Shown here: piece after piece, positions 1,704 to 56,240 of the stretch
Layout of the letters: every line of letters starts with the position of its first letter
Position numbering within the stretch: position 1 is the stretch's first letter
Assembly (NCBI GenBank): GCA_938091495.1
Contig: CALLJF010000012.1
Span: 32,154 to 96,153 of the forward strand
Reading direction: 5' to 3'
Length of the DNA stretch: 64,000 bases
Source: an uncultured Nitrososphaerales archaeon
Lineage (GTDB): Archaea > Thermoproteota > Nitrososphaeria > Nitrososphaerales > JACAEJ01
Position numbers and translations under genes: made by a program
The notes under the pieces: generated by a model
The model's database searches: none
What the model saw: the letters and a program-made list of their open reading frames with translations, nothing else
What the model was told of the DNA's origin: nothing

Positions 1704-1776
1704 GCTTACCCACTTTACATCAAAATATAAAATCCTTTCGTTATATAAGGGTTAAGGTGCTTTGAACTCTTATTAA

Positions 1777-1855
1777 TGGCGGGCTCGCGGGGATTTGAAC
1801 CCCGGACCTTCAGCTCCGGAGGCTGACGCCCTGATCCAGGCTAGGCGACGAGCCC
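1777..1855 (-). tRNA. tRNA-Arg (anticodon CCG), CCA encoded
   Basis: The reverse complement GGGCTCGTCGCCTAGCCTGGATCAGGGCGTCAGCCTCCGGAGCTGAAGGTCCGGGGTTCAAATCCCCGCGAGCCCGCCA folds as a cloverleaf. Anticodon loop is CTCCGGA and the T-loop is TTCAAAT. Confidence 0.9.
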
Positions 1856-1925
1856 TAAAATTTAATCAGCTCGCTGTGTACATTAATAAAATTAAAAAGT
1901 TACGACTTTTTACTCCATATTGTAA

Positions 1926-2621
1926 TTGGACATAAAAGGCTTCGCTGTAGATGTAGATGGAACCATAACAGAGGATGGCGGAGTGATAAGCCTCGATGCT
2001 GCCTATGCTCTTCGCTGGTTGGAGAAGATGAATTATAGAGTGATTTTGGTCAGTGGAAGGAGTGCATGGGAGGCTTATGCCTTATCAGTATATCTTGGGA
2101 CGACAAAAGTCGTAGTAGGAGAGAATGGAGGAGTCGTTGCAACTTCTCCATTGGATATGATGTTACTTGCAGATATTTCCTATAGCTTGATGGCTTACGA
2201 TTATTTGTCAAAGAAAATTTCAAACGTTAAAAAGAAGCTTGTCTTCCCTCGCTTCACAGAAATTGTTTTGGAGAGAACCTTCAATATCGATGAAGGGAGA
2301 AGGGTTCTTGATGAAAGTGGCATACCAGTTACCATCAACGATAGCAAATATGGGTATCATCTCACTCATAAGAGTGTGAACAAGGCGGTAGGCTTAAAGT
2401 TGGCAGTAAAGCATCTTGGTATCGATACAAGCGAGATAGTAGCTGTTGGTGATAGCGAGATAGACATACCTATGTTCAAGATATGTGGCTACAGCATAGC
2501 GTTAGGAAACTCACCTGATAGTCTAAAGAATGAGGCAAGCTTTTCTGTTAATTTAAGCATGGGCGATGGGCTCGTTGAAGCAATTCAGCACGTTGCTGAG
2601 AAATTCATGAAGATTAAATAG
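1926..2621 (+). CDS. HAD-IIB (Cof-type) phosphatase, archaeal phosphoglycolate-phosphatase-like
   Basis: 231 aa. HAD motif I is VDVDGTIT, motif IV is GDSEIDIPMF, and the size and layout match archaeal PGPase-type HAD proteins. TTG start. Confidence 0.7.
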   Translation: MDIKGFAVDVDGTITEDGGVISLDAAYALRWLEKMNYRVILVSGRSAWEAYALSVYLGTTKVVVGENGGVVATSPLDMMLLADISYSLMAYDYLSKKISNVKKKLVFPRFTEIVLERTFNIDEGRRVLDESGIPVTINDSKYGYHLTHKSVNKAVGLKLAVKHLGIDTSEIVAVGDSEIDIPMFKICGYSIALGNSPDSLKNEASFSVNLSMGDGLVEAIQHVAEKFMKIK

Positions 2622-2633
2622 AGAGGATAAGAA

Positions 2634-4535: not shown

Positions 4536-4586
4536 ATTTGAATTTCGATTAATAAGAACTTTTAATAATGATGATCGTAGGCTATC

Positions 4587-5813
4587 TTGATGATGTTCAA
4601 ACTAGTTTGCATAAACTGTAAGTCAGAGTATAGTCTAGATGAGATAATATATCGCTGCGAAAAGTGCAACAATCTTCTTGAAATTCAAACTGATTTAGAG
4701 AAAGCAAAAGAATTAATCAGTAAAAGAACCTTGGCTTCAAAGCCCCTCTCAGTCTGGAAGTATTCTGATCTTATCCCTGTCTTTGATAGAAATAAGATAG
4801 TAACCATTAATGAAGGAGGAACAAAATTATATAAATGTAGCAAACTGGCAGAAGAACTTGGAATCAAAAAATTATATGTGAAGAATGAAGGAGAGAATCC
4901 AACAGGATCTTTTAAAGATAGAGGAATGACCGTAGGTGTTACGAAGGCCAGAGAATTTAATGTAAGGGAGGTTGCATGTGCATCGACTGGGAATACTGCA
5001 GCATCCTTGTCTGCTTACGCTGCAAAAGCAGGTCTAAGAGGCATAATCTTGATTCCATTTGGAGCAGTTGCAATGGGAAAATTGGCCCAATCTATAATCT
5101 ATGGCGCCAAAGTGATAGCGATAAAGGGAAATTTTGATGAAGCATTACCTTTGATCATAGAGGCCAGCAAGAGCCTTGGACTATATTTACTGAATTCCAT
5201 AAATCCCTTTAGAATAGAAGGCCAAAAGACGGCTGCCTTTGAAGTTTGTGAACAACTCGATTGCCATGCTCCAGATAGATTCATAATCCCTGTTGGTAAC
5301 GCTGCTAACATATCAGCCTACTGGAAGGGCTTTAAAGAATTTTATGAATTGGATTTGGTCAAAAATTTGCCAAAGATGGTAGGGATTCAAGCGTCTGGTG
5401 CGAGCCCGATAGTTCAAGCCATAAAGGAAGGAAGAGATAGCATAAAGCCTGTGGATAATCCGAACACTGTTGCCACTGCCATAAGAATTGGTAAACCTGC
5501 AAGCTGGAAGAAGGCTTTAGCTGCAATAAAAGAGTCCAAAGGTTGTGCTGAATCCGTAAGTGATGAGGAGATACTATATGCTCAAAGATTGCTGGCAAGG
5601 AAAGAGGGATTGTTCGTAGAGCCTGCCAGCGCATCTAGCATAGCAGGTCTTAAGAAATTAATTGAATCGGGTTCAATAGACAAGGATGAAGAGATAGTCT
5701 GTGTTGCTACTGGTCATGGTTTGAAAGATCCTGATAGCGCCTTAAAATTCTATCAAGAGCCTATTGTGATAGAGCCTAGGTCTGATATGCTAAAAGAAGT
5801 CATAAAGAATTGA
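4587..5813 (+). CDS. thrC: Threonine synthase with N-terminal zinc ribbon
   Basis: 408 aa. N-terminal CxxC...CxxC. PLP-lysine motif NPTGSFKDRGM. The true start may be the ATG at 4590. Confidence 0.9.
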   Translation: MMMFKLVCINCKSEYSLDEIIYRCEKCNNLLEIQTDLEKAKELISKRTLASKPLSVWKYSDLIPVFDRNKIVTINEGGTKLYKCSKLAEELGIKKLYVKNEGENPTGSFKDRGMTVGVTKAREFNVREVACASTGNTAASLSAYAAKAGLRGIILIPFGAVAMGKLAQSIIYGAKVIAIKGNFDEALPLIIEASKSLGLYLLNSINPFRIEGQKTAAFEVCEQLDCHAPDRFIIPVGNAANISAYWKGFKEFYELDLVKNLPKMVGIQASGASPIVQAIKEGRDSIKPVDNPNTVATAIRIGKPASWKKALAAIKESKGCAESVSDEEILYAQRLLARKEGLFVEPASASSIAGLKKLIESGSIDKDEEIVCVATGHGLKDPDSALKFYQEPIVIEPRSDMLKEVIKN

Positions 5814-5820
5814 ATTACTG

Positions 5821-7104
5821 CTAAACATTAGCCTTAAGAAAGGATGCTATCTCATCTATTCCTATTTGCGTTTCGGTTCCATTTATCATATCCTTTGCGA
5901 CTATTTTCTTTTGTGAATACTCTCTCGGTGCTAATATCAATACGTATTTTGCATTCAAAGACGAAGCAACTTCCATCTGCTTTTTCAAATTCTTTCCTGA
6001 TAGATCATATTCGACTCTTATACCATTCTTCCTTAGTTCTGATGCCAGTCGAATAGCAGGCTTTATGAAATCTTTGTTTGCATATGCAACATATATCAAT
6101 GATAATTCTTCACTCTTAACCTTGCCTATCTTGGACAGTGCGATCGCTATTCTCTCAACTCCTCCTGCAACTCCCGTTGCTGCCAGATCTGGTCTATCAA
6201 AAACTGCTGGTAGGCTATCGAATCTTCCTCCTCCTGCCAAGGCTCCTATATCAATATTTTTTTCATCAAATACCTCAAAGACTATTCCATCATAATAGTC
6301 CAATCCTCTGACTATTCCCATGCTCAAAAGAACATTTTTCATCCCTCTTGTATCAAGAGATTCTGTTAATCTTATCAGATCATCTAAATTTTGAATCCCT
6401 TGCTCTCTTAATGAATTTATTATATCATCAGGCTTTCCTCTTAAATTAGCGAATTCTATGATCTTGTTCATGATGCTCTCATTTATCCCTTTATTAGCAT
6501 ATTCGTCTATGATTTGCTGAATGGTTTTCTTCTTTACTTTGTCCAAAGCCCTTAGTGCATCTAAGATCAATCTCTCATCATTTGTCTTCATCTCTCTTCT
6601 TACATATTCTTCGACTACCTTTCTATTCCCGATCTCTATAATACAATTTTTTAATCCAAGTTTATCAAATATCATATTCGTCAGTTCGATTATCTCTGCA
6701 TCTGCCTCTATACTTTTTGAACCAAAGATTTCTGCATCCCATTGATAGAACCATCTATATCGCCCATATTGAGGTTCATCATACCTCCACATGCTTGAGA
6801 AAGAACATAATTTTATTGGTAGTTGAAGATCACGGCGAGAAGCCACAAACCTTGTTAACCCTACTGTCAAATCGAACCTCAACCCTAGTTCTCTCCCTGC
6901 TTTGTCTTTAAAGTAATAAATTTCATCAGATATTGTAGGTCCGCTCTTTGCCTCCAAAGTGCTTAAGAGCTCGATTGGAGATGGCTCCATAAGCTTGAAT
7001 CCAAAAATCTTAGTAACTTCTAGAAAATTACTCCTTATCCTCTCTAACAGTTCAAAATCCTCTGGCTCTAGATCCCTCATCCCTCTTGGTAGCTGAAACT
7101 TCAT
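5821..7104 (-). CDS. hisS: Histidyl-tRNA synthetase
   Basis: 427 aa. N-terminal PRGMRD, class II motifs, and the GGGRFD motif. Confidence 0.9.
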   Translation of the reverse strand: MKFQLPRGMRDLEPEDFELLERIRSNFLEVTKIFGFKLMEPSPIELLSTLEAKSGPTISDEIYYFKDKAGRELGLRFDLTVGLTRFVASRRDLQLPIKLCSFSSMWRYDEPQYGRYRWFYQWDAEIFGSKSIEADAEIIELTNMIFDKLGLKNCIIEIGNRKVVEEYVRREMKTNDERLILDALRALDKVKKKTIQQIIDEYANKGINESIMNKIIEFANLRGKPDDIINSLREQGIQNLDDLIRLTESLDTRGMKNVLLSMGIVRGLDYYDGIVFEVFDEKNIDIGALAGGGRFDSLPAVFDRPDLAATGVAGGVERIAIALSKIGKVKSEELSLIYVAYANKDFIKPAIRLASELRKNGIRVEYDLSGKNLKKQMEVASSLNAKYVLILAPREYSQKKIVAKDMINGTETQIGIDEIASFLKANV

Positions 7105-7158
7105 TTTGTATTCTAACGATGGATTGCTATCTTGTTATTAAAATGTTTAATGATATCC

Positions 7159-7563
7159 TTAACTGTAGAAGGTAAGGCGCTTCTCTAATGGTGTATGCTG
7201 TCCAAAGCATTCCTTGTATGAATCGATCATACGCTGAATCTTTACAAAAAGAGTTTCTTTAGGATGATAACCTACTATAGATTCCATCGGTCTTCCACGA
7301 CAGAAAAGGATGAGCGTTGGTGTACCCATGACCCCAAAAAATTCAGCGATCTGAGTGTTTTCTTTGCTTGATAGAATATCGATCTTTGCTATCTTTAATT
7401 TGTCTGCAAAGATTCTTGCTGCCTCATCTATTAATGGATTCAGCTTTTTACACCATATACAGTGTTGATGCCAGAATTCCACTAAGACTGGCTTTTCCGA
7501 TTTGTTGACTTCTAATTCCCAATTGCTTGAATTAACCTCAACAGGAATTGTCAAAATGATCAC
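7159..7563 (-). CDS. Thioredoxin-fold protein (CIWC active site)
   Basis: 134 aa. VLVEFWHQHCIWCKKL followed by GTPTLILF is the typical Trx CxxC plus cis-Pro region. Overlaps the RFC stop by 4 nt. Confidence 0.75.
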   Translation of the reverse strand: MIILTIPVEVNSSNWELEVNKSEKPVLVEFWHQHCIWCKKLNPLIDEAARIFADKLKIAKIDILSSKENTQIAEFFGVMGTPTLILFCRGRPMESIVGYHPKETLFVKIQRMIDSYKECFGQHTPLEKRLTFYS

Positions 7564-9899
7564 TCTTCTTTAACTTTTGAAAAGCCGCTTTCTTTCCCTA
7601 TCCTACCTAGCTCTGCAATCATAGCGGTCAGTTGAATGTCAGGATGGGCTCCTACTATGAGCCTATAATCGTATTTTGCCAATGCTTCTGCAACCTCATC
7701 AAGATTATTTAATTTAAGCTTGAATACCTCTTCATTTACATACTTTATTATGTCTCTTTCAGACATGCCATAAACTCTAATAAGTTCTAGCAACTTTTCT
7801 CTTGCTTCCTTAAATCTCCCTTCCAAGGATAATTCTACCAATTCTCCTACCTTCGCCTTTCCCGATATTCCTGCTACCTTTTTTACATTATCTATGCTAA
7901 TTTCACCTAGGGATGAGGAGGATTGTAGCATATTTATTGCAAGTCTTAGATCTCCTTCAGTCAGTTCATAGATTAAGCTTAAAGCGTTATCAGAATACTT
8001 AACCTTCTCATTCTTACAAATCTTCTTCAAATGGTTTAAAACATCCTTTTCATCTATTCTAGAAAATCTAAAGATGGCGCATCTGCTTTGAATAGGCTCA
8101 ATTATTCCTGAAGAATAATTACAAATCAATATGAATCTGCAAATCCTTGAACTCTCTTCCATTATTCTTCTCAAAGCTGTTTGAGCATCACTGGTCATCT
8201 CATCGGCTTCATCAAGGATTATTATCCTAAAGGGAATCTCAACTCTCTTATCAATATATCTTGCAAAGGTCTTCACTCTCTCTCTTACTGTGTTTATTCC
8301 TCTCTCATCACTATTATGAAGTAGTATAGGCACTGTCCCTCCCCAGAAGGTCTCACTGCCTGGGACAGAGACGTCATAGACATACCCATCGTATTCCTCC
8401 AGCTCTATCCTCTTTACCATAACTACCGAAAGATCAGAATCGATCAGCCTTCTAACTCTCTTTAATAACTCTCTCTCTTCTTCATTTAATGAGGACATCT
8501 CTATCTTCTTTAAGACCTCTCTGGCCTTAATCTTTACGACCCTCTTAGACCTCTTGTAATACAGCTGGTGCCTCAGCTCGTACTTCCAATTGAACCCCAG
8601 CCTATTGCCTATCATCCTTAAGAACTTCAATAAAAACTCTGCCGGGATGAATTCGCTTCGTATGTAAGAGTAGCCTCCCAGTTGCCATACCAATCTCGCT
8701 TCTCTATCGAACACCGAAGTTTCTAGGCCAGATATCCTGCCCAGCCAAGCCACGTCTATTAGAAGTTCATTAGAGATTGAGGAATATCTGACGTGTTCGT
8801 TCCATCTGCCGCTCGCATCGCCCATGTAACCCATAAGAAAGGCATGCCTCAGCTTAAGGGGAAGGCTGAAGATGAAGTCAGGGACTCTCTTGTTCCCAGC
8901 AAGCCTACCACCTTTGTAAAAGTTGTCCCTAATGAACTTGGCCAACTGTGTGGAAGAGAGAGTCAGTTGAATTCCGGATAACCTTCTACTTGTGCCAGAC
9001 CTTATAAGATGAGTTTTGGAGGGTAAGTTGAGACTCTCAACAAAGTATTTAGAGACTTTGTTAGCAACCGCTACCTCTTCTGGATAACCATAGGTCAGAA
9101 CCAAGATGCCACTTGTATCTCCTCTGAACTCTATAGCACCTTCGGCCATGTAGTTGCCAAAGAGCCAGGCCGTTTCTTCATCTATCCTAACCTTATCGAT
9201 GATTCTATTTACCCTAGGGTTCTTTATCCTACCACTCCTCAACTCTGAGAACTCCTTTGGCCTGTAGCCAGATAGGTCCAAATCCTCCAGCTTGCCTTCT
9301 AACACAGTCTTAAAAGTTAGCAACAAATCTCCCTCCTTAAGTTCGCTGACTCTGACATCCCTCAACTCCCCGTCTTCGCTTATGGTCATCACAGAATGAT
9401 CAAGAGTAGTTTTTACGTATCCGCCATCAAATCTTATCTTTGCCACCTTGCCTACTTTATGCCTCGATATGTTCCTCACAGGCATGAAGTTCACGTTAAG
9501 GTCCTCATCAACCGATAGGATCTCCAAGCCTTCAGGGTATGCATATTTGGAATTCTGGTCCTTAAAGTACTCTTTAGCTAACTCGCCTATCGTTGTTCTT
9601 TTGATGACCCCTCCCTTCTTGACCATTATCGGTGTATCAGGGGTTACCGATGCGTTTAGCTCTAAAGTGTAATCTCTCCAATAGTCTTTTAGTATGCTTC
9701 TTGCTATGCATAAAGCAGCTGTAGTCTTTCCAGTTCCAGGAGGACCAGCGAATAACAAATGTGGCATCTCATTTGGTGAATTTAGCATGGATTTTAATCT
9801 CTCAACTATCGAACTTTGATTCACTAAGTCTTCTAGCTTTAAGGGTCTGTATTTTTCTACCCACATCAGATTCTCGATTGCCATCGACAAAGATATCAA
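7560..9899 (-). CDS. rfcS: Replication factor C small subunit, interrupted by one intein
   Basis: 779 aa. N-extein has WVEKYRP and the Walker A GPPGTGKTT, ending LELNA. C-extein reads SDERGINTVRERVKTFAR...ILDEADEMT...SRC. The extein total of about 333 aa fits RFC-S. The start may be an internal Met (9884 or 9866). Confidence 0.9.
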   Translation of the reverse strand: MISLSMAIENLMWVEKYRPLKLEDLVNQSSIVERLKSMLNSPNEMPHLLFAGPPGTGKTTAALCIARSILKDYWRDYTLELNASVTPDTPIMVKKGGVIKRTTIGELAKEYFKDQNSKYAYPEGLEILSVDEDLNVNFMPVRNISRHKVGKVAKIRFDGGYVKTTLDHSVMTISEDGELRDVRVSELKEGDLLLTFKTVLEGKLEDLDLSGYRPKEFSELRSGRIKNPRVNRIIDKVRIDEETAWLFGNYMAEGAIEFRGDTSGILVLTYGYPEEVAVANKVSKYFVESLNLPSKTHLIRSGTSRRLSGIQLTLSSTQLAKFIRDNFYKGGRLAGNKRVPDFIFSLPLKLRHAFLMGYMGDASGRWNEHVRYSSISNELLIDVAWLGRISGLETSVFDREARLVWQLGGYSYIRSEFIPAEFLLKFLRMIGNRLGFNWKYELRHQLYYKRSKRVVKIKAREVLKKIEMSSLNEEERELLKRVRRLIDSDLSVVMVKRIELEEYDGYVYDVSVPGSETFWGGTVPILLHNSDERGINTVRERVKTFARYIDKRVEIPFRIIILDEADEMTSDAQTALRRIMEESSRICRFILICNYSSGIIEPIQSRCAIFRFSRIDEKDVLNHLKKICKNEKVKYSDNALSLIYELTEGDLRLAINMLQSSSSLGEISIDNVKKVAGISGKAKVGELVELSLEGRFKEAREKLLELIRVYGMSERDIIKYVNEEVFKLKLNNLDEVAEALAKYDYRLIVGAHPDIQLTAMIAELGRIGKESGFSKVKEE
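8313..9650 (-). mobile_element. Intein (446 aa) with LAGLIDADG homing-endonuclease domain inside rfcS
   Basis: Starts with Ser (SVTPDTPIMV, block A). Has TLDH (block B TxxH). Two LAGLIDADG-like motifs: WLFGNYMAEG and FLMGYMGDASG. Ends VPILLHN followed by the +1 Ser of SDERG. Coordinates were checked codon by codon. Confidence 0.85.
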
Positions 9900-9924
9900 A
9901 TAGGGTATTTATAATTCTGTATAT

Positions 9925-10350
9925 CTAAAGCCTTGCCCTTTCTTTCCATAATATCCATAAATTTATTATGAATATTACCCATGCAGGACCAATTACTCCT
10001 CTTATTTCTAATCCTATCCAGAATAATAGAAATGTAGATGCTAATCCTATGATTATGGCTAATGCTGATACAAATTTCAAATACTTGCTTATTTTACCAA
10101 TATAGAACTCATATCCAGCATAAAATCCTAATAGCGCTGATGCAATGTATGGGATAATAAACATCATACTAGCTTGAACTAAAGCGTTAAAGATTAAAGA
10201 TATGATAAGATATGCACTAGCTGTTATATGCAATAATGCTAATCCTTCGAATTTTGGAGTTTCAGCTATTGCTCCAAGCCTTGCACCACAATTGCCACAG
10301 AACTTTAAATTTGTTGGATTATCGAATCCACACTTCTCACATTTTACCAA
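9925..10350 (-). CDS. Zinc-ribbon (CxxC-x11-CxxC) N-terminal domain protein with about 4 TM helices
   Basis: 141 aa. MVKCEKCGFDNPTNLKFCGNCGARL is followed by hydrophobic segments. TTG start. Full-length member of the repeated 5'-end family (see 11043..11279 and 11740..11835). Confidence 0.7.
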   Translation of the reverse strand: MVKCEKCGFDNPTNLKFCGNCGARLGAIAETPKFEGLALLHITASAYLIISLIFNALVQASMMFIIPYIASALLGFYAGYEFYIGKISKYLKFVSALAIIIGLASTFLLFWIGLEIRGVIGPAWVIFIINLWILWKERARL

Positions 10351-10378
10351 ATTTTATCATCTTTGCTTCATTCGATTC

Positions 10379-10395
10379 GATTATTTAACTTTTCA
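10379..10395 (-). promoter_or_regulatory. BRE/TATA-like promoter element upstream of the zinc-ribbon gene
   Basis: Gene-sense sequence TGAAAAGTTAAATAATC lies 29-45 nt upstream of the TTG start. The same 17-mer is at 11311..11327 and a near copy at 11761..11778, with the same spacing to their ORF starts. Confidence 0.5.
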
Positions 10396-10490
10396 TTAAA
10401 TCCGATCTCATACAATAAACTTCTGCTAATATAGGTTTATCCGGACACTATCGATGCTCTTACAAAAAGATTTTAAATAATGCCAGCCAA

Positions 10491-10694
10491 ATGGTTGATG
10501 GTTTGAGTCTCATAAAAAAGAGAATTCAGAAGCTGGAGAAAAGGATCGATGAGTTAGAGGATACAATAGAAGTCTTGAGCGACTCTGAAGCAATTAAGGA
10601 GATAAAAGATGCATTAGAAGATATAAAAGAAGGAAGGTTCAAAATTTACGATGATATAGATGCTTATATGGCAGAGCTGGGCTCATCTCCTTGA
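10491..10694 (+). CDS. Putative antitoxin (small coiled-coil protein paired with RelE/ParE toxin)
   Basis: 67 aa, acidic and helical, with LSDSEAIKEIKDALEDIKEGRF typical of antitoxins found upstream of RelE/ParE genes. Its stop overlaps the toxin start by 4 nt. Confidence 0.6.
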   Translation: MVDGLSLIKKRIQKLEKRIDELEDTIEVLSDSEAIKEIKDALEDIKEGRFKIYDDIDAYMAELGSSP

Positions 10695-10945
10695 AATATC
10701 GCATCATAGTAACTAATACTTTCGATAAATGTATGCGCAGGTTAATGCCAGATAATAGGGAGAGAGCTCGGCGGCTTATCAAAGAGATTCAAGCAAACCC
10801 TTATGCCTTCAAGGAGTTAAGCGGGAAGCTTAGAGGGCTGAGAAGTGCAAGGTTTGGAGATTATAGGATTATCTTTGCTATAAATGAGAGGCAAAAGACA
10901 GTAATCTTATTTTCTGTAAGACCGAGAGAAAGAGCCTATGAATAG
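10691..10945 (+). CDS. relE: RelE/ParE-family toxin
   Basis: 84 aa. The pattern ...LSGKLRGLRSARFGDYRIIFAINERQKTVILFSVRPRERAY matches the RelE/ParE C-terminal signature (R-x-G-DYR-I-I/Y ... V-x-I-x-x-V-x-x-R). Confidence 0.8.
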   Translation: MKYRIIVTNTFDKCMRRLMPDNRERARRLIKEIQANPYAFKELSGKLRGLRSARFGDYRIIFAINERQKTVILFSVRPRERAYE

Positions 10946-10954
10946 TGATAGTCA

Positions 10955-10980
10955 GCCTAAAAAATGCTTAGGCGTTTTCC
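10955..10980 (+). terminator. Hairpin plus T-run after relE
   Basis: GCCTAA (10955-10960), a 7-nt loop, TTAGGC (10968-10973), then GTTTTCC. Confidence 0.35.
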
Positions 10981-11042
10981 AATAGGCTGTAAAAATTTAA
11001 ATCGTTAAGAGTTCTACTGGCTTTAGCTTTTTTGTTAATGGA

Positions 11043-11279
11043 TCAACTTGATAGCCTAATGATTCTAAGCTTGTTGCTTGTGCACCTGCTGTAATTGCAT
11101 CTAGCTTGAATCAAAGCGTTGAATATTAATGATATGAGCAAATATGAACTAGCTGTTATATGTAATAATGCTAATGATTCAAACTTAGGAGTTATTATAG
11201 CACTAAGCCTTGCACCACAATTACCACAGAACTTCAAATTGGATGGATTTTCAAATCCACACTTCTCACATTTGATCAA
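11043..11279 (-). pseudogene. Truncated paralog (5' fragment) of the zinc-ribbon membrane gene
   Basis: The first ~60 codons (MIKCEKCGFENPSNLKFCGNCGARLSAIITPKFESLALLHITASSYLLISLIFNALIQA) parallel 9925..10350. After that come 18 unrelated codons and a stop. DNA homology about 11103-11330 vs 10171-10400. Confidence 0.7.
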
Positions 11280-11310
11280 AATTACATCATCCTCTCTGTA
11301 TCCATAATTT

Positions 11311-11327
11311 GATTATTTAACTTTTCA
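11311..11327 (-). promoter_or_regulatory. Second copy of the BRE/TATA-like 17-mer
   Basis: gattatttaacttttca is identical to 10379..10395 and lies 32 nt upstream of the truncated ORF start. Confidence 0.45.
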
Positions 11328-11391
11328 ATATGGTTCTGATCATCCTTTATCTCACAAAACTATCTCTAATTGATTATATGCTGAGGAAAAA

Positions 11392-11730
11392 TCAGCCTTT
11401 AGCCTCAATCCTTGCAAGGCGGGCTTCAAGTTCCATGATCTTTTCCATAAGAGGCATGCGTTTCTCTATGGAGTCAAATCGAGTGATCATCTCATTTCTT
11501 AATGATAATAGCCTCTCTTCTAAAGCCTTGAACTTTGCATCCATTTCGTTTCTTAATGACCCAAGCCTCTCATTCATCTCATTTCTCAAGCTCGCTATCC
11601 CTTTCTCCACACTATCTACTCTCTTATCTAAGCTATCTATCCTTGCGTGTATAGCCTTTATTTCGCCTGTTATCTCGCTCAGCCTTGGCAGTAAGAGCCT
11701 TTCAATCCAGCTTGGTATCTTTTCAGCCAA
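11392..11730 (-). CDS. Coiled-coil protein with three SLRNEM repeats
   Basis: 112 aa, heptad-like throughout. ASLRNEMNERLGSLRNEMDAKFKALEERLLSLRNEMITRF. TTG start with a BRE/TATA-like element about 31 nt upstream. No family recognised. Confidence 0.6.
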   Translation of the reverse strand: MAEKIPSWIERLLLPRLSEITGEIKAIHARIDSLDKRVDSVEKGIASLRNEMNERLGSLRNEMDAKFKALEERLLSLRNEMITRFDSIEKRMPLMEKIMELEARLARIEAKG

Positions 11731-11739
11731 GTTTTAGCC

Positions 11740-11835
11740 TCAGCATGTAATGCTCTTTAAGGTTATTTGAAGTTTTCTAATAGAGGATTTTAAATTAGAT
11801 GGATTATTAAATCCACGCTTCTCACATTTTACCAA
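11740..11835 (-). pseudogene. Third, shortest 5' fragment of the zinc-ribbon gene
   Basis: TTG-VKCEKRGFNNPSNLK followed by unrelated residues, with a stop at 11740. 11792-11850 aligns with 10305-10362, including an identical 23-mer ctcacattttaccaaattttatc. Confidence 0.6.
11761..11778 (-). promoter_or_regulatory. BRE/TATA-like element for the coiled-coil gene
   Basis: Gene-sense AGAAAACTTCAAATAACC lies 31 nt upstream of the TTG at 11730. About 14/18 positions match the 17-mer upstream of the zinc-ribbon copies. Confidence 0.4.
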
Positions 11836-11886
11836 ATTTTATCGCCTTATCATAATAAAAAAATAAAGGGTGGGAATTATAGAGCG

Positions 11887-12933
11887 TTAATATTTGATTA
11901 TTCCGTCAAAAGACCCACTGAATGTTTTATCACTAGTATTAATGTCTGCAACGATCGTGCCACTACCTGTTGCACCTTTATATTCTCCAGTACCTGTGAT
12001 GATCGTGTATGTGCCAGTCAAATGATTAATCCCAGTATAACCCTCATTCCATACTTCACGTTGTATGCCCTCTATTTTGATGTGAATCTGATCCCCATTA
12101 ATTATAGTGATATTGAACCTTCCAGTTACAAGAGCGCCTTTGTTCAACGCTGAATAATGCCCCCAATCAGATACAAGATAGCCTTCAAATGTAAAGTAAA
12201 CACCAGTAGTGTTAATTGTTCCAGATCCACTTCCACTCACAGCGTTTACAGCTATCGTATTATTAGGAGGATTAAAAGCGGAATCCTCAGTATAACTACC
12301 ACTGAAAGTTCCTTTGAAATCTGGCTTGGCTATAAGCTTGGCTATAATATAATCTAGTTTATCTTCAAGCTGAGTCTTAAGGTCTGATATAGCTGTTAGA
12401 ATGGCTTTCGTAGCATTTGTTATGGCTGATAGTGTGGTTTCGAACCAATCATTAACGAATTTGTAGAAAGATCCTCCTTCATCTAGCTTATCCTCAATAG
12501 CTAAGATTTCTTTTTTAATATCTAAGAGCTTATCCCATATTGTATAGACGATGAATTGTGCTGAAGCTATTGCAGGAGCAGTATATGGATAGACATCAGC
12601 TCTTATATAGTATGTTCCATATGGTACTGAAGGTATAGTAAGAGTTGTTGTGAATGTTCCTGCAGAACCAACATAAACTGATTTGTATGGTTCACCATAA
12701 TTCCATGCTGAATTGCCGTTGGTATCAAAGTAGACTCTATAATATGTGTAAGGAGTAAAGCCACTTCCAGTAATAGTCACAATAGTTCCTGAAGGACCAC
12801 TAGTTGGAGATAAGGTTAATGTTGCTGGTGAAGCGAATGCTAATGGCACTGTAGCAAATATTGATAGCATAGATATGATGAATAGACTGATTATAGCGGT
12901 GGATAATATCTTCTTATCTTTGGATTGCATCAA
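11887..12933 (-). CDS. Secreted/anchored protein: signal peptide, Ig-like (IPT/TIG-like) domain, coiled coil, beta-rich C-terminal domain
   Basis: 348 aa. Hydrophobic N-terminus ending AFASPA. LTLSPTSGPSGTIVTITGSGFTP is IPT/TIG-like. The central helical segment is EILAIEDKLDEG...LKTQLEDKLDYIIAKL. The C-terminus is G/T/S-rich. Function unknown. Confidence 0.6.
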   Translation of the reverse strand: MMQSKDKKILSTAIISLFIISMLSIFATVPLAFASPATLTLSPTSGPSGTIVTITGSGFTPYTYYRVYFDTNGNSAWNYGEPYKSVYVGSAGTFTTTLTIPSVPYGTYYIRADVYPYTAPAIASAQFIVYTIWDKLLDIKKEILAIEDKLDEGGSFYKFVNDWFETTLSAITNATKAILTAISDLKTQLEDKLDYIIAKLIAKPDFKGTFSGSYTEDSAFNPPNNTIAVNAVSGSGSGTINTTGVYFTFEGYLVSDWGHYSALNKGALVTGRFNITIINGDQIHIKIEGIQREVWNEGYTGINHLTGTYTIITGTGEYKGATGSGTIVADINTSDKTFSGSFDGIIKY

Positions 12934-13219
12934 ATTTTTTGTTATGGACGAATATGATATATAAATCTTATGGAATCTCTAAAAGTCCAACTAAGAAACA
13001 TTAAATACTTCCTCATTTCACTTCTCGTGAACAGTGATAGCGATAAAAAAGCATTATGTAAGAGTCCTTCTTGAAAGAACATTTGCGTATGTTTGAAAAA
13101 ACTCCTAGGCATCACAGCGGATACAGAAGTCTGCTGTCATGCTCTGAAAATCCTTCATGAAAAATTACTTAAGAAGAGAGGATAAGTCTCAATTTTGTAT
13201 TTGACTTGTGATTATCTCT

Positions 13220-13534
13220 TTACTTGAAGTGCTCTATTCGAGGTCTCTCTCTTTCCCTTTCTCTTTCATCTTTTTCAGTAACCTTTTCATCAAAATCAAG
13301 GAAATCTATTGCAAATTGCTTTAATCTGTCGAAGAAGGTCTTAAGCTCCTCTTCATCGAATTTACTCATCTTTATCGGGTTTGATAGCCATTGCATCCAA
13401 CCATTAACACTCTGGTTTATTGCCAAAAGTGACTGAATACAGCCCTCTACATAACCGAGACGATCCTTCGGGGCCATAGCATCCAATGATTTTCTGCGCT
13501 CTTTAATTATCTCTGTCCAACTTCGGCCTGCCAT
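13220..13534 (-). CDS. Hypothetical protein with ERERER C-terminal tail
   Basis: 104 aa, a clean ORF with plausible composition. No motif recognised with confidence. Confidence 0.5.
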   Translation of the reverse strand: MAGRSWTEIIKERRKSLDAMAPKDRLGYVEGCIQSLLAINQSVNGWMQWLSNPIKMSKFDEEELKTFFDRLKQFAIDFLDFDEKVTEKDERERERERPRIEHFK

Positions 13535-13604
13535 ATCTTTGAATTCATCCTCCTAACTTATAATACTATCGCCTAAAATATTTTGCCGTAATGATATGAA
13601 TAAT

Positions 13605-14657
13605 TCACCTTATGTATTTTGAGACAAAGTTTTCGTAGGCATCTCTCAACTTTATAATCTTTGGAGGATGTTTGAAACCATAACCACAGATATCTAAAGG
13701 CGCACCAAATTCTCCTTCATCTTTTGCAACTTTTACAGCTCTTATCACATCGAGCAAGATGTTTCCAGCATTAGGACCATCAGATGAGCGCAGATATATA
13801 TCAAACTTTATAGATGAGCCCAAAAAACCCTCTCCTTGTATCCAGTAGTAGCTAGTCCTATCATTTTGCAGATAATCGACGTAGTCAGTAGTCCCAGCCA
13901 CAGTTTCAAACTCGTAAGGCAGTTCAACGGATATGGCTTTTGTCTTCATATTCCTTTTTATGAACTTAACATTCTCATTTAATGTGTTAAAAGTCTCAGC
14001 TCCTCCGCCAACGTCTAATTGATAACTTTTCATGACCCTTATCCCTCTACTGTGCATGAAGTCAAGGATGCCTTTATGAAAAGCAGTCCCTCCAAACTGG
14101 CTCATAAGGTCGTCGCCAACTACAACTAAATTCTCTTCTTTGAATTTTTTTACCATGCTCTCATCAGATGCTATTAATGATGGAGTTGCATTGATAAAGC
14201 AACACCCTGATTTAATAGCGACTTCAGCATAAAATTTTGATGTCTTATCTAAGCCTGATGATATCAGATTCACTAAAACATCCACTTTGCTTTCTTTCAA
14301 TGCATCTATCATATCACAAGGCTCATCATTCTTAATATCAAAAGAATTTCTTAGATGATATGAGAGATCATCGTATAAGAAGCCTCTTTTAACCTTTACA
14401 TTCAAAGCATTAACATCAAAGTACTTTTTTGCCACGTTAGGTTTTGAGAATATGGCTTCAGAGAGGTCTAAGCCTATCTTCTTAGCATCTATGTCAAAGG
14501 CTTCAACTATTTCCAAATCACTGACTCTATAATTTCCTATCAATCTGTGCCAAAGACCATTTTTAGAGTCGTTCTCACTATAGTAAATTATCCCCTGAAC
14601 TAAACTGCATGCACAATTGCCTATACCTATTAGTGCTATTCTTATCTTGCCACTCAT
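13605..14657 (-). CDS. ino1: myo-Inositol-1-phosphate synthase (archaeal short form)
   Basis: 350 aa. N-terminal Rossmann IRIALIGIGNCACSLVQGI and overall similarity to archaeal/bacterial MIPS. Confidence 0.8.
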   Translation of the reverse strand: MSGKIRIALIGIGNCACSLVQGIIYYSENDSKNGLWHRLIGNYRVSDLEIVEAFDIDAKKIGLDLSEAIFSKPNVAKKYFDVNALNVKVKRGFLYDDLSYHLRNSFDIKNDEPCDMIDALKESKVDVLVNLISSGLDKTSKFYAEVAIKSGCCFINATPSLIASDESMVKKFKEENLVVVGDDLMSQFGGTAFHKGILDFMHSRGIRVMKSYQLDVGGGAETFNTLNENVKFIKRNMKTKAISVELPYEFETVAGTTDYVDYLQNDRTSYYWIQGEGFLGSSIKFDIYLRSSDGPNAGNILLDVIRAVKVAKDEGEFGAPLDICGYGFKHPPKIIKLRDAYENFVSKYIR

Positions 14658-14697
14658 AGTCTTAAAGCAGTATTGGTTTACTTTTTAATGTTATTGT

Positions 14698-14895
14698 TTA
14701 ATCCAGTTTTGAAATTAGAGCAACTAAGCCAGAGATGATGAATAAGATCGAAATAAAGTAGTATATAGGTGATATCTGAGGAATTATAGGGGTTGTTGCT
14801 GTAAAGTATGCTATAGATATACCTATAATCAAGAATATAAGACCTATAAGGCGGATGAATACATCAATCCTCTCAGTAGTTCTTGAGCCCTTCAA
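14698..14895 (-). CDS. Small membrane protein (2 TM)
   Basis: 65 aa with two hydrophobic helices. No homolog recognised. Confidence 0.4.
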   Translation of the reverse strand: MKGSRTTERIDVFIRLIGLIFLIIGISIAYFTATTPIIPQISPIYYFISILFIISGLVALISKLD

Positions 14896-14939
14896 ATTGG
14901 ATTTTTGTTCTATCTATCTATTAAATAAGCTTATTTGAA

Positions 14940-16040
14940 TCATAGGCTTTTAGCGATTTCTAACTTCTCTGGTAAATACTTATCACTTATCGTTGTCAAA
15001 CCATATTTAGCAAAGGCTTCGAGTTCGCTCTTCTTTCTTATCTTTAAGAAAAAGTCCAATTCCCTCTGCCATATTCCTCCTTTGTACCTTGGGTCTTTCT
15101 TTAGTTCGTAGATGCGTTTTATATCCATATCTGTAAGGGGATCGCTAGGAAGTTTGTATTTTTTTATATCGCTACCCCATACCCCTATCCATTTACCAGA
15201 CGGTACAGTCAACTCTCTTAGATGAGCAGCATTGGCAGATCCAGAAATTATTACCATGGCTATATGTTCGCCATAAACATCCCCATCTGTCAAAATATAG
15301 ACCGATAATCCTAATTCTTGATTCAACCTTCTAAGCATATATCTTGTAGACCTTGGGGGCTGACCTGCTGTATCTATTATCAAGGCTTTGTACCTATTGT
15401 GCACTTTCTCTTCAACGAATCTAGTGAACAAACCTCCTTTTTCTACAGCTAAGACCATTTCAGCAGATGTGTCTATAAAGTCAGCAGTGCTCAAGCTCGG
15501 TCCTATTAAGTAACCGTCTGGATGGGAGGCTAAGTTTAACCTCTTCCCTTCATATCCTGGCACAGTATACTCTATAGTAAGGTCGCCGAATATGGCTGAG
15601 CGCTCTTCAGGATAGACATTAAAATCCTCTCTAGCTTTGGACAATAATGCTTCTAAATCCGTTATTATTTCATCAGATTCCGATTGATCCATAAACTCCA
15701 TATCATAGGCTTGAGCAGAGTAGAACACATCTCTAAGAGTGCTTGTCTTTCCTTGCTCTATTAACTTTTTTACAAAAAAAGCCAGCCATATCAATTGAGT
15801 AAAAGGGCGGATATGTTTTATATTATGAGTTGATCTTCTTACAGAGGTTTTGCCAAGGATGTATTGCTTTAGTCTTTCATCATAAACTATGTTCCTCACA
15901 GATCTGCTTGGAAAATTTATTTCTGGAAATACGCCTTCATTTATATCTGAGTATATTCTTAACCCTAAATCTTTGAGAAGTTTTCTGACTTCCCTCTTTC
16001 TAGCACTGGCTATACCTTCTTTAGAGATCTTTGAACTCAT
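14940..16040 (-). CDS. top6A: DNA topoisomerase VI subunit A (Spo11-like)
   Basis: 366 aa. 5Y-CAP region, and a Toprim region with VEKGGLF and ILTDGDVYGEHI. Confidence 0.9.
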   Translation of the reverse strand: MSSKISKEGIASARKREVRKLLKDLGLRIYSDINEGVFPEINFPSRSVRNIVYDERLKQYILGKTSVRRSTHNIKHIRPFTQLIWLAFFVKKLIEQGKTSTLRDVFYSAQAYDMEFMDQSESDEIITDLEALLSKAREDFNVYPEERSAIFGDLTIEYTVPGYEGKRLNLASHPDGYLIGPSLSTADFIDTSAEMVLAVEKGGLFTRFVEEKVHNRYKALIIDTAGQPPRSTRYMLRRLNQELGLSVYILTDGDVYGEHIAMVIISGSANAAHLRELTVPSGKWIGVWGSDIKKYKLPSDPLTDMDIKRIYELKKDPRYKGGIWQRELDFFLKIRKKSELEAFAKYGLTTISDKYLPEKLEIAKSL

Positions 16041-16703
16041 AGTCTCAACTAGGATGATTTGCTAAATGTATAGATTTAAAATTTTGGATACCCATTTTTG
16101 ACCTAAATAGATCACGTGATATTTAACAGAATCCAATGTTAACTTAGCCAATACAATATGAAAAACATATCCTTTGCGTATAGCCTTGTTGGGAACGAAT
16201 TTCCTGTGACATGTAAAGTCAGTTGTCCTTTGAAGCTGCATCTATTATCGTAGGAGGCAAGCTCAAACCAATCCTTGCATAAGATTTACGAACCCTATAA
16301 GATCGCTCTTTAATTCACTTACAAAGAGGGAGAAGATTAAAATTTTTAGGTTGGATTAAGAAGACCTACAAGTTTAAGAATCTGACCAGTTTAAAACTCT
16401 CTGTTAGTGAATGTAAGTTGGAGCAAGAAGTATCGTTTAAAGTGAAGTTTAAGCCAAAATTGTCATGGGTGGATAAGGTCTACTTGGGGAATATGCTTAT
16501 TGAGTTATTAGGAACTGTATCAAAAGCAACATCAGCCTTTGATTTTGAAGTTATATCTTCAGAGTGATCTATTTTCATAATTATCAATAACTATCTATTT
16601 AGATTAAGTCAAGAATTGTTAAAGAGTCATAAAACGGTAAGCATATATTCTTGACCAAGAAATATATCAATTGATTAAGATAAGATTTCTCAAAGTGATA
16701 AAA

Positions 16704-38627: not shown

Positions 38628-38766
38628 TCATATAATTTGCTAATAAAGCCATATTTATGGTTAATTCAGAAAAGAATTCGGCTATTTTTGATAGAAGAGA
38701 ATCAGTGAGTTTTAAACTCATGCTTCTCTCTAAGTGGCATACACACTTTTCATAGGCTCGGTCTTT

Positions 38767-56202: not shown

Positions 56203-56240
56203 AATATCAAATAAAATTCTCTATAATTAATTCTTTATCA

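Follow-up and report, generated by a model that had tools for sequence, protein, structure and literature searches.

How chromosomal toxin–antitoxin (TA) genes move between genomes without a transposase or an integrase is poorly understood. We analysed a stretch of 64,000 nucleotides (hereafter the window) from an uncultured Nitrososphaerales archaeon, a hot-spring organism of the ammonia-oxidiser type, in which a small zinc-ribbon membrane gene is preceded by two shorter copies of its own promoter and 5′ end, with unrelated cassettes interposed. The question raised by this arrangement is whether the copies are decaying members of a tandem paralog array or fragments left behind as small cassettes entered the 5′ region of the gene one after another, the two readings offered by a preliminary description of the sequence. 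We consider serial insertion with long target duplication, probably driven by host recombination with the 5′ end of the gene as anchor, to be the best explanation, with a probability of roughly 55%.

Two nested stubs precede an intact zinc-ribbon gene

The full-length gene, designated A (9925–10350), lies on the minus strand and is preceded by two nested stubs, B and C, consisting of promoter and 5′ end. The features of the locus are as follows.

7560–9899, minus strand: replication factor C (RFC) small subunit, intein-containing (Pfam); right border of the variable spot
9925–10350, minus strand: gene A, the proposed target of the insertions; 141 aa, N-terminal zinc ribbon and four predicted transmembrane helices, counted by eye from the sequence
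10165–10395, minus strand: A repeat copy, joined to the intact gene; promoter and codons 1–60 (BLAST against B)
10396–10457, no strand: 62-nt spacer between the A promoter and the TA unit; no match in the loci compared
10458–10945, plus strand: TA unit; promoter, putative antitoxin and RelE/ParE-family toxin
10946–11101, minus strand: aspartyl-protease 3′ remnant region, joined out of frame to stub B at codon 60
11098–11327, minus strand: stub B; promoter (17-mer at 11311–11327), TTG start and codons 1–60
11328–11788, minus strand: second insert, coiled-coil gene; ORF 11392–11730 with about 60 nt of flank on either side
11789–11843, minus strand: stub C; 8 nt upstream of the start and codons 1–16, Cys7 to Arg
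11887–12933, minus strand: secreted IPT/TIG-domain protein of 348 aa (Pfam TIG); conserved upstream neighbour of the target gene

BLAST placed all three copies on the minus strand at essentially the coordinates first described. Copy B, estimated by eye at about 80% identity over some 230 bp, aligns (11098–11327) with 10165–10395 at 81.2% over 234 nt (E 1.9e-47), and copy C, described as about 60 bp with 16 codons, aligns (11789–11843) with 10304–10358 at 90.9% over 55 nt (E 3.4e-15); B and C are 85.4% identical over 48 nt. The two words that had been picked out as shared are both exact: the 17-mer at 10379–10395 in A and 11311–11327 in B, and the 23-mer in A and C. As described, stub B is an unbroken 78-aa ORF (11043–11279) of 60 homologous and 18 unrelated codons, whose homology to A stops after the common CTAGCTTGAA, a 10-nt identity. 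Of the 31-aa ORF that stub C forms, 16 codons are homologous; in its zinc ribbon a Cys is replaced by Arg. Such stubs yield short "genes" with intact promoters, like the 78-aa ORF of B, that annotation pipelines will call as proteins. In a whole-window self-BLAST, A, B and C were the only sizeable repeats in the 64 kb and had no further copies there, as a multicopy repeat would; since the sole other repeat was one 28-mer elsewhere, the set lies far beyond chance.

Gene A matches the Pfam families DZR, Zn_Ribbon_1 and DUF7577, all below their cut-offs, and among its 79 homologs every match with a named source is from an archaeon or from Nitrososphaerales. Its 5′ region carries the 17-mer as a BRE/TATA-like element, a Shine–Dalgarno-like GATGAT and the TTG start. 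The RFC gene starts 26 nt downstream, and homologs of the TIG protein lie upstream of the target gene in the related loci L009, L010, L113, L114, L115, L117, L119, L121 and L123. The sequence upstream of stub C (CCCACCCTTTATTTTTTT..ATTATGA) matches the native promoters of L001 (36/45) and L113 (31/42), and stub C occupies the ancestral position beside the upstream neighbour gene. The surrounding 25 kb codes for EF-1a, ArgRS, HisRS, thioredoxin, RFC, inositol-1-P synthase, TopoVI A/B, aIF1A, RIO1 and similar genes, and is collinear with L009 at 89–94% nucleotide identity except at the insertion spot. On balance, we regard the locus as a small recombination hot spot of this thermophilic Nitrososphaerales archaeon, set among core genes in a region that is stable apart from it.

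The inserts are a TA unit with a protease remnant and a coiled-coil gene

Between A and B, where a RelE/antitoxin pair had been noticed on the opposite strand, we found on the plus strand a toxin ORF (10691–10945) matching PF05016 at 33.7 bits (cut-off 23) and, overlapping it by 4 nt, an upstream 67-aa ORF (10491–10694) for a putative coiled-coil antitoxin; the unit carries its own promoter (AAAAAGATTTTAAATAAT). The fold signature, the overlapping small upstream ORF and the promoter together identify it, as a prediction, as a type II unit of the RelE/ParE family. As a whole the unit is kept in four other contigs, at 83% nucleotide identity in L193 (694–1182) and L196 and at 75% in L194 and L195, in contexts all different from that of the window. 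Its occurrence at 83% identity in the foreign context of L193 marks it as mobile. Homology between loci stops exactly at 10458 and 10945, that is, at the promoter and the stop codon, and no conserved cassette ends were found beyond these across the loci compared.

The remainder of this insert contains a hairpin (10955–10973) and the last 34 codons of a retropepsin-like aspartyl-protease gene (11000–11101), recognized by six-frame translation. An exhaustive phmmer comparison with the C-termini of proteins P0090–P0093 gave a best E of 5.7e-5 with 81% identity over 27 aa, and tblastn gave 85% over 26 aa; P0090 itself matches PF13975/PF13650. The 18 extra codons of B are an out-of-frame reading of this remnant. 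The junction of B and the insert thus unites two truncated genes, the target at codon 60 and the protease 3′ end, and is an illegitimate fusion.

The coiled-coil gene reported between B and C is a 112-aa ORF on the minus strand, framed by a 19-nt inverted repeat (11373–11391 / 11733–11751). A homolog lies in L012 directly upstream of a 5′-deleted target gene (tblastn finds 76% amino-acid identity across 111 residues, and the best segment in tblastx reaches 89.6% across 67 aa), and in other lineages homologs at 65% identity occur within a conserved RNase H / radical-SAM context. The L012 target gene lacks codons 1–45, and that of L009 has lost 23 nt internally. With respect to the coiled-coil insert, L009 seems to be a secondary deletion and not a pristine empty site.

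Related loci contain empty sites and independent inserts

The preliminary description had proposed a search for empty-site alleles in relatives, and these were found in L009, in L008 and, for a cassette of L009, in the window itself. In each of three syntenic comparisons a single-copy target sequence is doubled around a small insert. The A repeat segment is present once in L009, at 4029–4242 (214 nt), which the window covers twice. Reciprocally, L009 has two copies of window 9908–9950 (43 nt), one on each side of a HicB/HicA pair at the 3′ end of the target gene, so that the HicAB cassette and a 3′ stub sit between the target gene and the RFC gene. L008 9977–10131 (155 nt) occurs twice in L117, where it flanks a different ParE-like pair. 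Away from the target gene, the L193 relative of the TA unit of the window lies between Cas6 and VapBC genes with 43-nt direct repeats on either side. Four of the five TA cassettes examined in related hot-spring Nitrososphaerales lie between long target direct repeats, three of them with matching empty sites.

The inserts measure 0.46–0.9 kb, and the direct repeats vary in length and identity: 231–234 nt and 81% for A/B, 55 nt and 91% for A/C, 134–155 nt and 98.5% (over 134 nt) for L117, 43–56 nt and 80% for L009, and 43 nt and 84% for L193. The breakpoints in the target gene fall at codon 16, codon 45, codon 60 and the 3′ end, and the toxins of the window and L117 are 34% identical and oppositely oriented. 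The differing breakpoints and the differing toxins indicate that the insertion events were independent. The L117 left junction shows a 5-nt TAAAG microhomology. AGCTAG ends both 5′ breakpoints, which hints at some site preference, and the hexamer is common to only two breakpoints. All stubs, three 5′ and one 3′, duplicate in direct orientation, across a cassette, the end of the intact gene that faces them.

These comparisons bear on the first of the two early readings, in which an old array of two or three full-length paralogs, with cassettes between them, lost the 3′ parts of its upstream members by random deletion. A single deletion would yield the two truncated genes at the B junction, deletions with arbitrary endpoints do occur at the locus (codons 1–45 in L012, 23 internal nucleotides in L009), and the A–B dN/dS of 0.16 considered below would suit two genes that were both long functional. 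Yet none of about 25 related loci (20 by self-BLAST, about 25 by tblastn) contains two full-length target copies, the stubs share one polarity around the cassettes with none opposite, reciprocal empty sites exist, and the same architecture surrounds a TA cassette in the unrelated context of L193. A decaying paralog array is therefore improbable.

Like the window, every locus compared comes from a metagenome assembly, and an assembler might have concatenated the alleles of co-existing strains. The A–B differences do resemble alleles of different strains, and the contigs of relatives tend to break close to the target gene. However, no junction shares more than 10 nt, much less than an assembler k-mer, each interval holds unique cassette DNA, and the architecture is repeated in four independent assemblies from different projects (window, L117, L009 and L193), which makes an artefact of this kind very improbable.

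The repeats diverge like alleles of different lineages

We compared the divergence of the copies with that of orthologs. Copies A and B differ at dS 0.60 and dN 0.098 (dN/dS 0.16, drawn from 60 codons and 38 synonymous sites), within the ortholog range of 0.08–0.27; a B copy evolving neutrally from the split onwards would be expected to show dN of about 0.35. Flanking genes of the window and L009 show dS of 0.20–0.46, with one gene at 0.80. The promoter of stub B is identical to that of the L009 gene at 43 of 47 positions and to that of A at only 34 of 44. Relative to L001, the sites at which A and B differ are arranged blockwise, in 8 runs by hand count against 16.5 expected. L118 and L117 share a 96.7% patch exactly over the repeat and 85% identity elsewhere. 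In L009, the 3′ stub beside RFC falls in a block 93.8% identical to the window, whereas the gene body is only 78.5% identical, so the L009 gene body and HicAB were probably imported. The evidence for mosaic alleles (dS, dN/dS, promoters, blockwise sites and the L118 patch) draws on a small number of sites. By this evidence the divergence between A and B is that of functional alleles from different lineages, with a signature of purifying selection, and unlike that of a decaying duplicate; this signature also speaks against decaying paralogs. A low A–B dN/dS would equally follow from a functional 78-aa product of B.

The same data address true target-site duplication at the moment of insertion, in which a long-overhang staggered break or template switching would capture a stray TA fragment, both sides would be filled in, and the resulting identical repeats of variable length would later diverge and exchange patches by gene conversion. 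Such an origin would fit the L117 repeats, whose identity is 98.5% over 134 nt and whose empty site in L008 is clean, the TAAAG microhomology at their left junction, the variation in repeat length (43–231 nt) as in bacterial restriction–modification (RM) cases, and the random-looking window insert with its truncated gene. The window repeats fit it poorly: a pseudogene stub should have reached dN of about 0.35, not 0.098, at dS 0.60 with dN/dS 0.16; the B promoter is nearer to that of L009 than to that of A; A–B dS exceeds that of most window–L009 flanking genes, yet L009 lacks the insert; and the L117/L118 patch is left unexplained. We therefore judge duplication at insertion to be unlikely as an account of the locus. 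The L117 copies nevertheless count against the favoured reading, since de novo duplication, or gene conversion afterwards, accounts for them better than the import of a diverged allele does.

Searches for recombinases and mobile elements

The absence of an integrase, asserted earlier for the window, was borne out by Pfam scans for the cassettes and for 25 kb around them: no integrase or transposase was found among all ORFs of at least 90 aa in window positions 1–25,564, where the scan returned housekeeping families only. Signs of an integron were likewise lacking, with no integrase and no attI/attC-like conserved sites between the cassettes. Comparison of the gene, the cassettes and the 23-mer with viruses and plasmids gave no match in IMG/VR, the INPHARED phages or the PLSDB plasmids; matches of the 17-mer in viral, phage and plasmid records were, by estimate, at the chance level for an AT-rich word.

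The second early reading, serial insertion, likened the stubs to the 3′ tRNA fragments left by integrative elements. Its topology stands, upheld by the empty sites, the independent event in L117 and the mirror-image 3′ event in L009. Its mechanism is unsupported. Taken strictly, it calls for integrative elements that a site-specific recombinase inserted at an att site within the 5′ end of the gene; every element would have brought a new promoter and 5′ end with it and have since decayed to addictive or neutral cargo. One gene is indeed targeted repeatedly across lineages, CTAGCTTGAA is identical over 10 nt at the B breakpoint, AGCTAG ends both 5′ breakpoints, and an element-borne replacement 5′ end predicts dN/dS below 1. 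Thaumarchaeal elements are also known to use protein-coding genes, including a Nitrososphaera Zn-finger gene, often with TA pairs, but the reported cases are 3′-distal and have short att sites of about 13 bp (PMC6563490). Against such elements stand four independent inserts of 0.46–0.9 kb with no recombinase or other element gene, of which that in L117 had little time for decay because its repeats are 98.5% identical; four differing breakpoints with no single core reused; cassettes without common conserved ends; a truncated foreign gene at an illegitimate junction adjoining the supposed core; and the absence of gene, cassettes and 23-mer from the viral contigs, phages and plasmids searched. 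The att mechanism thus has a low probability.

Four independent events at the ends of one small gene exceed what purely generic recombination predicts, which also counts against the favoured reading. The type II TA cassettes of these thermophilic archaea might instead be autonomous mobile units with a dedicated insertion mechanism that makes long variable target duplications and favours gene ends so that the target survives. Insertion might then be the work of a trans-acting recombinase or nuclease that loosely prefers sites such as AGCTAG, or might follow breaks provoked by the cassette. We hold this to be quite doubtful; if true, the ends of the zinc-ribbon gene would be a preferred landing pad.

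A model of serial insertion through host recombination

Under serial insertion with long target duplication, two cassettes would have been added successively just upstream of the conserved zinc-ribbon membrane gene: the coiled-coil gene, and the RelE/ParE pair, with the 3′ end of an adjacent aspartyl-protease gene still in tow. A long direct repeat of the target frames each addition, the upstream copy remaining as a stub, C and then B. The target gene survives because the downstream repeat copy, with promoter and 5′ end, stays attached to the intact gene. We infer the recombination pathway and the order of events as follows. DNA of a related lineage, carrying a cassette together with a copy of the target promoter and 5′ end, would enter the cell either in linear form or as a circle excised by recombination between such repeats. 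The homologous-recombination machinery of the host could then integrate it with the target gene as anchor, the other end being joined through the same homology (Campbell-type) or by an illegitimate join (homology-facilitated illegitimate recombination), and an element-encoded integrase would play no part. TA cassettes, we propose, persist because losing them is toxic.

Comparison with known systems

Integron arrays likewise accumulate small or promoterless cassettes, often TA pairs, serially, with newcomers pushing older ones along. Unlike integrons, the locus has no IntI-type integrase, its cassettes own promoters, and its repeats copy the target gene rather than a recombination site.

Among integrative elements that target protein-coding genes and bring a replacement gene end, phage 21/e14 integrates in the 3′ end of E. 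coli icd. As at the present locus, foreign DNA lies between direct repeats of a gene segment and the copy adjacent to the insert restores the gene; tandem arrays at one site are known. These elements differ from the present locus in encoding an integrase, reusing one short core and spanning kilobases; at our locus we found neither a recombinase nor one reused core, nor, in the viral, phage and plasmid records searched, an element or att site. [quoted passage not shown] 2019, PMC6563490).

Homology-facilitated illegitimate recombination has been proposed for serial displacement in T6SS/Rhs arrays (Kirchberger et al. 2017, PMC5361080, which also cites Jackson et al. 2009 for displacement of Rhs C-termini). 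As in the effector–immunity arrays of Vibrio cholerae and in Rhs loci, a conserved gene stretch would serve as recombination anchor, an incoming module displaces the previous copy and leaves orphan fragments in series, and mosaic alleles of differing origin occur without an integrase. Consistent with such displacement, the locus combines a conserved anchor (promoter and 5′ end) with an illegitimate junction at the other end, and copies from different lineages with mosaic alleles. T6SS/Rhs arrays, however, displace variable 3′ ends with immunity genes and so diversify a toxin, whereas here the repeats are conserved 5′ ends with promoters, a mirror image, and the cargo is functionally unrelated to the target gene.

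The closest likeness is to insertion with long target duplication, described for bacterial RM gene complexes (Nobusato et al. 2000, Gene 259:99; Furuta et al. 2010, PMC2853133). In both, a small addictive unit is inserted without a mobility gene. The long direct repeats around it vary from tens to hundreds of bp and correspond to sequence present once at the empty site of a relative; they often extend across a start or stop codon, which in the bacterial RM cases keeps the target intact (PMC2853133), and they may be used serially or in tandem. By the measures of Furuta et al. 2010, flanking direct repeats longer than 30 bp occur in the window, L117, L009 and L193, single-copy empty sites with similarity on both sides in L009, the window and L008, and the inserts, at 0.46–0.9 kb, are below 20 kb and free of mobility genes; the architecture fits, and the cargo class differs from RM. 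On the further measure, near-identity of the repeats to each other and to the target, L117 stands at 98.5% and the other pairs at 80–91%, the A–B divergence bearing the signature of purifying selection. Type II TA pairs (RelE/ParE and HicAB) and a coiled-coil gene take the place of RM genes here, in an archaeal host and with two nested events at a single gene, and the window repeats are far more diverged (81–91%), resembling alleles of different lineages. No archaeal case passed the selection of the 2010 survey (PMC2853133), and we found no literature report of archaeal TA cassettes with this type of insertion. Our findings suggest that an architecture previously tied to bacterial RM genes extends to TA pairs and to archaea, and this extension suggests a general, host-recombination-dependent route for small addictive cassettes. 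The locus shows how such cassettes may spread without an integrase or transposase of their own and, with its nested events, reciprocal empty sites and allele-like repeats, offers a concrete test system.

Three nested copies of one gene's 5′ end

The zinc-ribbon membrane gene, hereafter A, is preceded, at higher coordinates, by two successively shorter 5′ stubs, B and C. BLASTN of 9900-11900 against the whole window, together with the ORF list and Pfam (PF05016), bore out the preliminary description of three nested copies interleaved with an opposite-strand RelE/antitoxin pair between A and B and a coiled-coil gene between B and C.

Features of the locus (window coordinates; similarities by BLASTN)
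9925-10350, minus strand: gene A, 141 aa, N-terminal CxxC...CxxC zinc ribbon, then four hydrophobic helices
between A and B, plus strand: 67-aa coiled-coil ORF, overlapping the toxin ORF
between A and B, plus strand: RelE/ParE toxin, 84 aa (PF05016, 33.7 bits; cut-off 23)
11098-11327, minus strand: stub B, 81.2% identical to A 10165-10395 over 234 nt (E 1.9e-47)
between B and C, minus strand: coiled-coil ORF, 112 aa
11789-11843, minus strand: stub C, 90.9% identical to A 10304-10358 over 55 nt (E 3.4e-15)

Stubs B and C are 85.4% identical over 48 nt. The reported 17-mer and 23-mer proved to be exact matches and the codon counts held: B is an intact 78-aa ORF of 60 homologous and 18 other codons, with homology ending after the common CTAGCTTGAA. 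Stub C, an ORF of 31 aa, retains 16 homologous codons, and one Cys of its first zinc ligand pair has become Arg. When the 64 kb (G+C, 38.8%) were compared with themselves, no further repeat emerged except one 28-mer elsewhere, and the architecture is real, beyond chance. The exact 28-mer (38507-38534 and 56080-56107) comprises the T-arm and acceptor 3′ end of two minus-strand tRNA-like sequences (38507-38628 and 56080-56205) with matching 5′ GCGGGGG ends. Neither ARAGORN nor Rfam called them, and permissive Rfam matched the T-arm only; they are probably tRNA genes that carry an intron or are atypical in another respect. In addition, a 19-nt inverted repeat (11373-11391/11733-11751; 16/19, core ATGCTGAGG/CCTCAGCAT) flanks the 112-aa coiled-coil ORF exactly, and could represent mRNA-end pairing or a relic of terminal repeats.

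Empty sites and independent events in relatives

We compared the window with homologous loci. Along window 1075-16406, L009 (JBNAWJ010000036, a Kamchatka MAG) is collinear at 89-94% nucleotide identity except at this spot. L009 carries one copy of the gene, and its segment 4029-4242 has two counterparts in the window, one in B and one in A. Thus, a single-copy target of about 214 nt was doubled around the toxin-antitoxin (TA) insert, for which L009 is the empty site. Conversely, L009 carries a HicB/HicA pair (PF15919, PF07927) between the target gene and the RFC gene, with a copy of the final 43-56 nt of the target gene on either side of it (80% over 56 nt), and the window is the empty site for this pair, with 26 nt separating the stop codon from the RFC start. 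Because the L009 stub beside RFC lies in a block 93.8% identical to the window, as against 78.5% between the L009 gene body and A, the stub is the resident remnant, and the gene body and HicAB look imported. The neighbouring RFC small-subunit gene (window 7560-9899) contains an intein of about 442 aa at about 8322-9647 (Pfam Intein_splicing) that its L009 ortholog (5275-6276, 333 aa) lacks, with flanking sequence about 93% identical; the intein is thus a presence/absence polymorphism between close relatives.

A further case was found in L117, from an independent JGI hot-spring metagenome, whose gene shares 64% protein identity with A. Its order is a TIG/DUF11 gene, a 5′ stub (5293-5425), an antitoxin, a ParE-like toxin (34% identical to that of the window, in the opposite relative orientation) and the full gene, and the segment is present once (9977-10131) in L008, which is syntenic with L117 at 81-85% nucleotide identity. 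The L117 stub and full gene are 98.5% identical over 134 nt; with these nearly identical repeats and a TAAAG microhomology, the event fits template switching, or a de novo duplication arising at a staggered break, equally well.

Copies of the window's TA unit (10458-10945, from the promoter through the stop codon) occur in L193 and L196 at 83% nucleotide identity, with a Cas6 gene on one side and VapBC on the other, and in L194 and L195 at 75%. In L193, it again lies between direct repeats of 43 nt (84%, E 5.6e-6). These repeats (615-656 and 1278-1320) have a weaker third copy at about 2205-2233, past the adjacent VapBC pair and at a minus-strand gene's 3′ end, and L193 may contain a second nested series resembling that of the window. 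In L012, the target gene starts at codon 46, immediately after a homolog of the coiled-coil gene (tblastn, 76% aa over 111 residues; best tblastx segment, 89.6% over 67 aa). This arrangement is a deletion derivative; on its other side, the coiled-coil homolog is cut by the contig end. The target gene is a pseudogene both in L012 (357-640; codons 1-45 absent, in-frame stop) and in L009 (4075-4494, product P0060; internal 23-nt deletion and frameshift), indicating that it is dispensable in some lineages.

Collectively, of the five TA cassettes examined, four are flanked by direct repeats derived from their target, with empty sites for three of these. The ends of the target gene were struck no fewer than four times, each time elsewhere: at codons 16, 45 and 60 and at the 3′ end. 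The decay of a tandem paralog array, one of two readings initially considered, is unlikely, given that none of the relatives compared carries intact copies in tandem and that all stubs point the way a target duplication would leave them. An assembly artefact is also unlikely, with at most 10 nt common at the junctions and the architecture present in four independent assemblies. The other initial reading, serial cassette insertion with each event leaving a displaced 5′ fragment, agrees in its topology with the empty sites and independent events; its analogy with integrative elements is wrong, or at least unsupported, by reason of the missing element genes and differing breakpoints.

Insert junctions

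Inserts of different loci share nothing outside the 488-nt TA unit, and hence the cassettes have no conserved ends of the attC or terminal-repeat kind. Likewise, no homologs were found for the insert flanks (10396-10457, 11331-11391 and 11731-11790). On the minus strand, the 155 nt from the toxin stop to the B breakpoint code for the C-terminal 34 residues of a retropepsin-like aspartyl protease, with a hairpin after them. Exhaustive phmmer searches with this remnant returned aspartyl-protease C-termini only (best E 5.7e-5, 81% over 27 aa), one of the proteins returned, P0090, matches PF13975/PF13650, and tblastn gave 85% over 26 aa. The 18 foreign codons of B are an out-of-frame reading of the same remnant. 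The B junction therefore joins two truncated genes, a mark of illegitimate recombination or of a deletion and not of a recombinase core. AGCTAG terminates both 5′-stub breakpoints (window 11101-11108; L117 5421-5428) and occurs nowhere else within the gene's first 180 nt. We considered it as a common breakpoint motif and rejected it, as it is absent from the L009 and L193 junctions.

Chromosomal setting of the target gene

The target gene has 79 homologs, many from hot springs, and all source-named matches are to an archaeon or Nitrososphaerales. It is single-copy in relatives, no IMG/VR viral contig carries a homolog, and in nine loci it lies downstream of at least one secreted protein of the IPT/TIG or DUF11 type with homology to window 11887-12933; these features together indicate a chromosomal gene. 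The 25 kb around the locus encode core functions only (EF-1a, ArgRS, HisRS, thioredoxin, RFC, inositol-1-phosphate synthase, topoisomerase VI A and B, aIF1A, RIO1, aIF2-beta and others), with no integrase or transposase. Integrase-mediated elements that later decayed are an unlikely source, since four inserts lack any element gene and their breakpoints differ; moreover, reported thaumarchaeal integrations into protein genes are 3′-distal with short att sites (PMC6563490).

A mobile-element origin of the gene or cassettes was also rejected: in IMG/VR, neither the gene-family alignment nor the coiled-coil protein nor the toxin picked up anything beyond generic zinc-ribbon matches. BLASTN of 10160-11350 against phages and plasmids returned no match, and an NCBIfam search yielded no informative names. 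The 23-mer, proposed as a probe for viral carriers, is absent from IMG/VR; the 17-mer gave 50 matches, an estimated chance level for an AT-rich 17-mer, and seems to be a generic BRE/TATA-type word. The idea of the coiled-coil gene as a defined mobile cassette gained no support, its homologs being widespread small archaeal genes in stable housekeeping contexts. L001-L007 (85% aa) initially suggested a provirus beside the gene; these loci have only the gene in common with the window and contain no extra copies. Their context is quite different and possibly island-like, with about 20 small same-strand ORFs in the roughly 8 kb upstream, including a glycosyltransferase, a methyltransferase and a PKD-domain protein, and PadR/HTH genes downstream. 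Contigs of relatives from different metagenomes are broken at or near the target gene: L002, L006 and L007 stop at the same point about 2.5 kb downstream, and L118 begins within the repeated 5′ segment (1-123). This suggests strain-variable or repeated DNA there.

Divergence between the repeats

We next asked whether the repeats are fresh duplicates or alleles of different lineages, using Nei-Gojobori estimates over codons 2-60. A and B differ by a dS of 0.60 (15.5/38 synonymous sites) and a dN of 0.098; their dN/dS of 0.16 falls within the ortholog range of 0.08-0.27. Had B been a neutral stub since parting from A, a dN of about 0.35 would be expected, and B has therefore mostly evolved within a working gene; a functional 78-aa product would also explain its low dN/dS. 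The dS to L009 is 1.0 for A and 0.68 for B, compared with 0.20-0.46 for the flanking genes and 0.80 for HisRS (window 5821-7104; 85% aa), which may be another imported allele. Furthermore, the B promoter matches that of L009 at 43/47 positions and that of A at only 34/44. At sites differing between A and B, L001 displays A-like, B-like and A-like blocks (8 runs by hand count, 16.5 expected), with a similar, weaker pattern in L009, and the first 123 nt of L118, which coincide with the repeated segment exactly, share 96.7% identity with L117 as against 85% for the rest. These comparisons, small in their counts, indicate that 5′-end alleles of the target gene travel between lineages with the cassettes.

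Proposed mechanism and comparison with known systems

The locus is best described as a recombination hot spot with nested insertions of small cassettes, accompanied by long duplications of the target. The likely order begins with the TIG gene, native promoter and target gene; the coiled-coil insert would then have entered, leaving stub C in a state common to L012, followed by the TA insert, leaving stub B. Adjoining the conserved TIG-type neighbour, C is at the ancestral position, and its upstream sequence (CCCACCCTTTATTTTTTT..ATTATGA..GCGATAAAATTTGG) matches the native promoter of L001 at 36/45 and of L113 at 31/42 positions. The L009 promoter resembles that of the window after deletion of C and the coiled-coil insert, and an extra BRE/TATA-like 17-mer is common to A, B and L009.

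As the preferred pathway, we infer that host recombination could integrate DNA bearing a cassette and a copy of the target promoter and 5′ end. A circle arising from recombination between such repeats would carry exactly these parts and, in any related cell, would insert into this gene again, accounting for both the recurrence and the missing integrase; counter-selection against loss would explain the over-representation of TA pairs. A less likely reading, and the most novel, is that TA cassettes have an insertion mechanism of their own, with a degree of site preference.

Among known systems, the locus agrees with the features by which Furuta et al. recognised 'insertion with long target duplication' of restriction-modification genes: the repeats exceed 30 bp and are single-copy at the empty site, the insert is short, and mobility genes are missing. 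In restriction-modification insertions, the repeats often span start or stop codons and the target gene is spared, and no archaeal case passed that screen (PMC2853133). The allele-like divergence, illegitimate junction and serial stubs also recall 'sequential displacement' by homology-facilitated illegitimate recombination, proposed for T6SS effector-immunity arrays and Rhs loci (PMC5361080); however, those systems displace 3′ ends, whereas 5′ ends are displaced here. Relative to these known architectures, the archaeal host, the TA cargo, the 5′-end displacement and the allele-like repeats are new.
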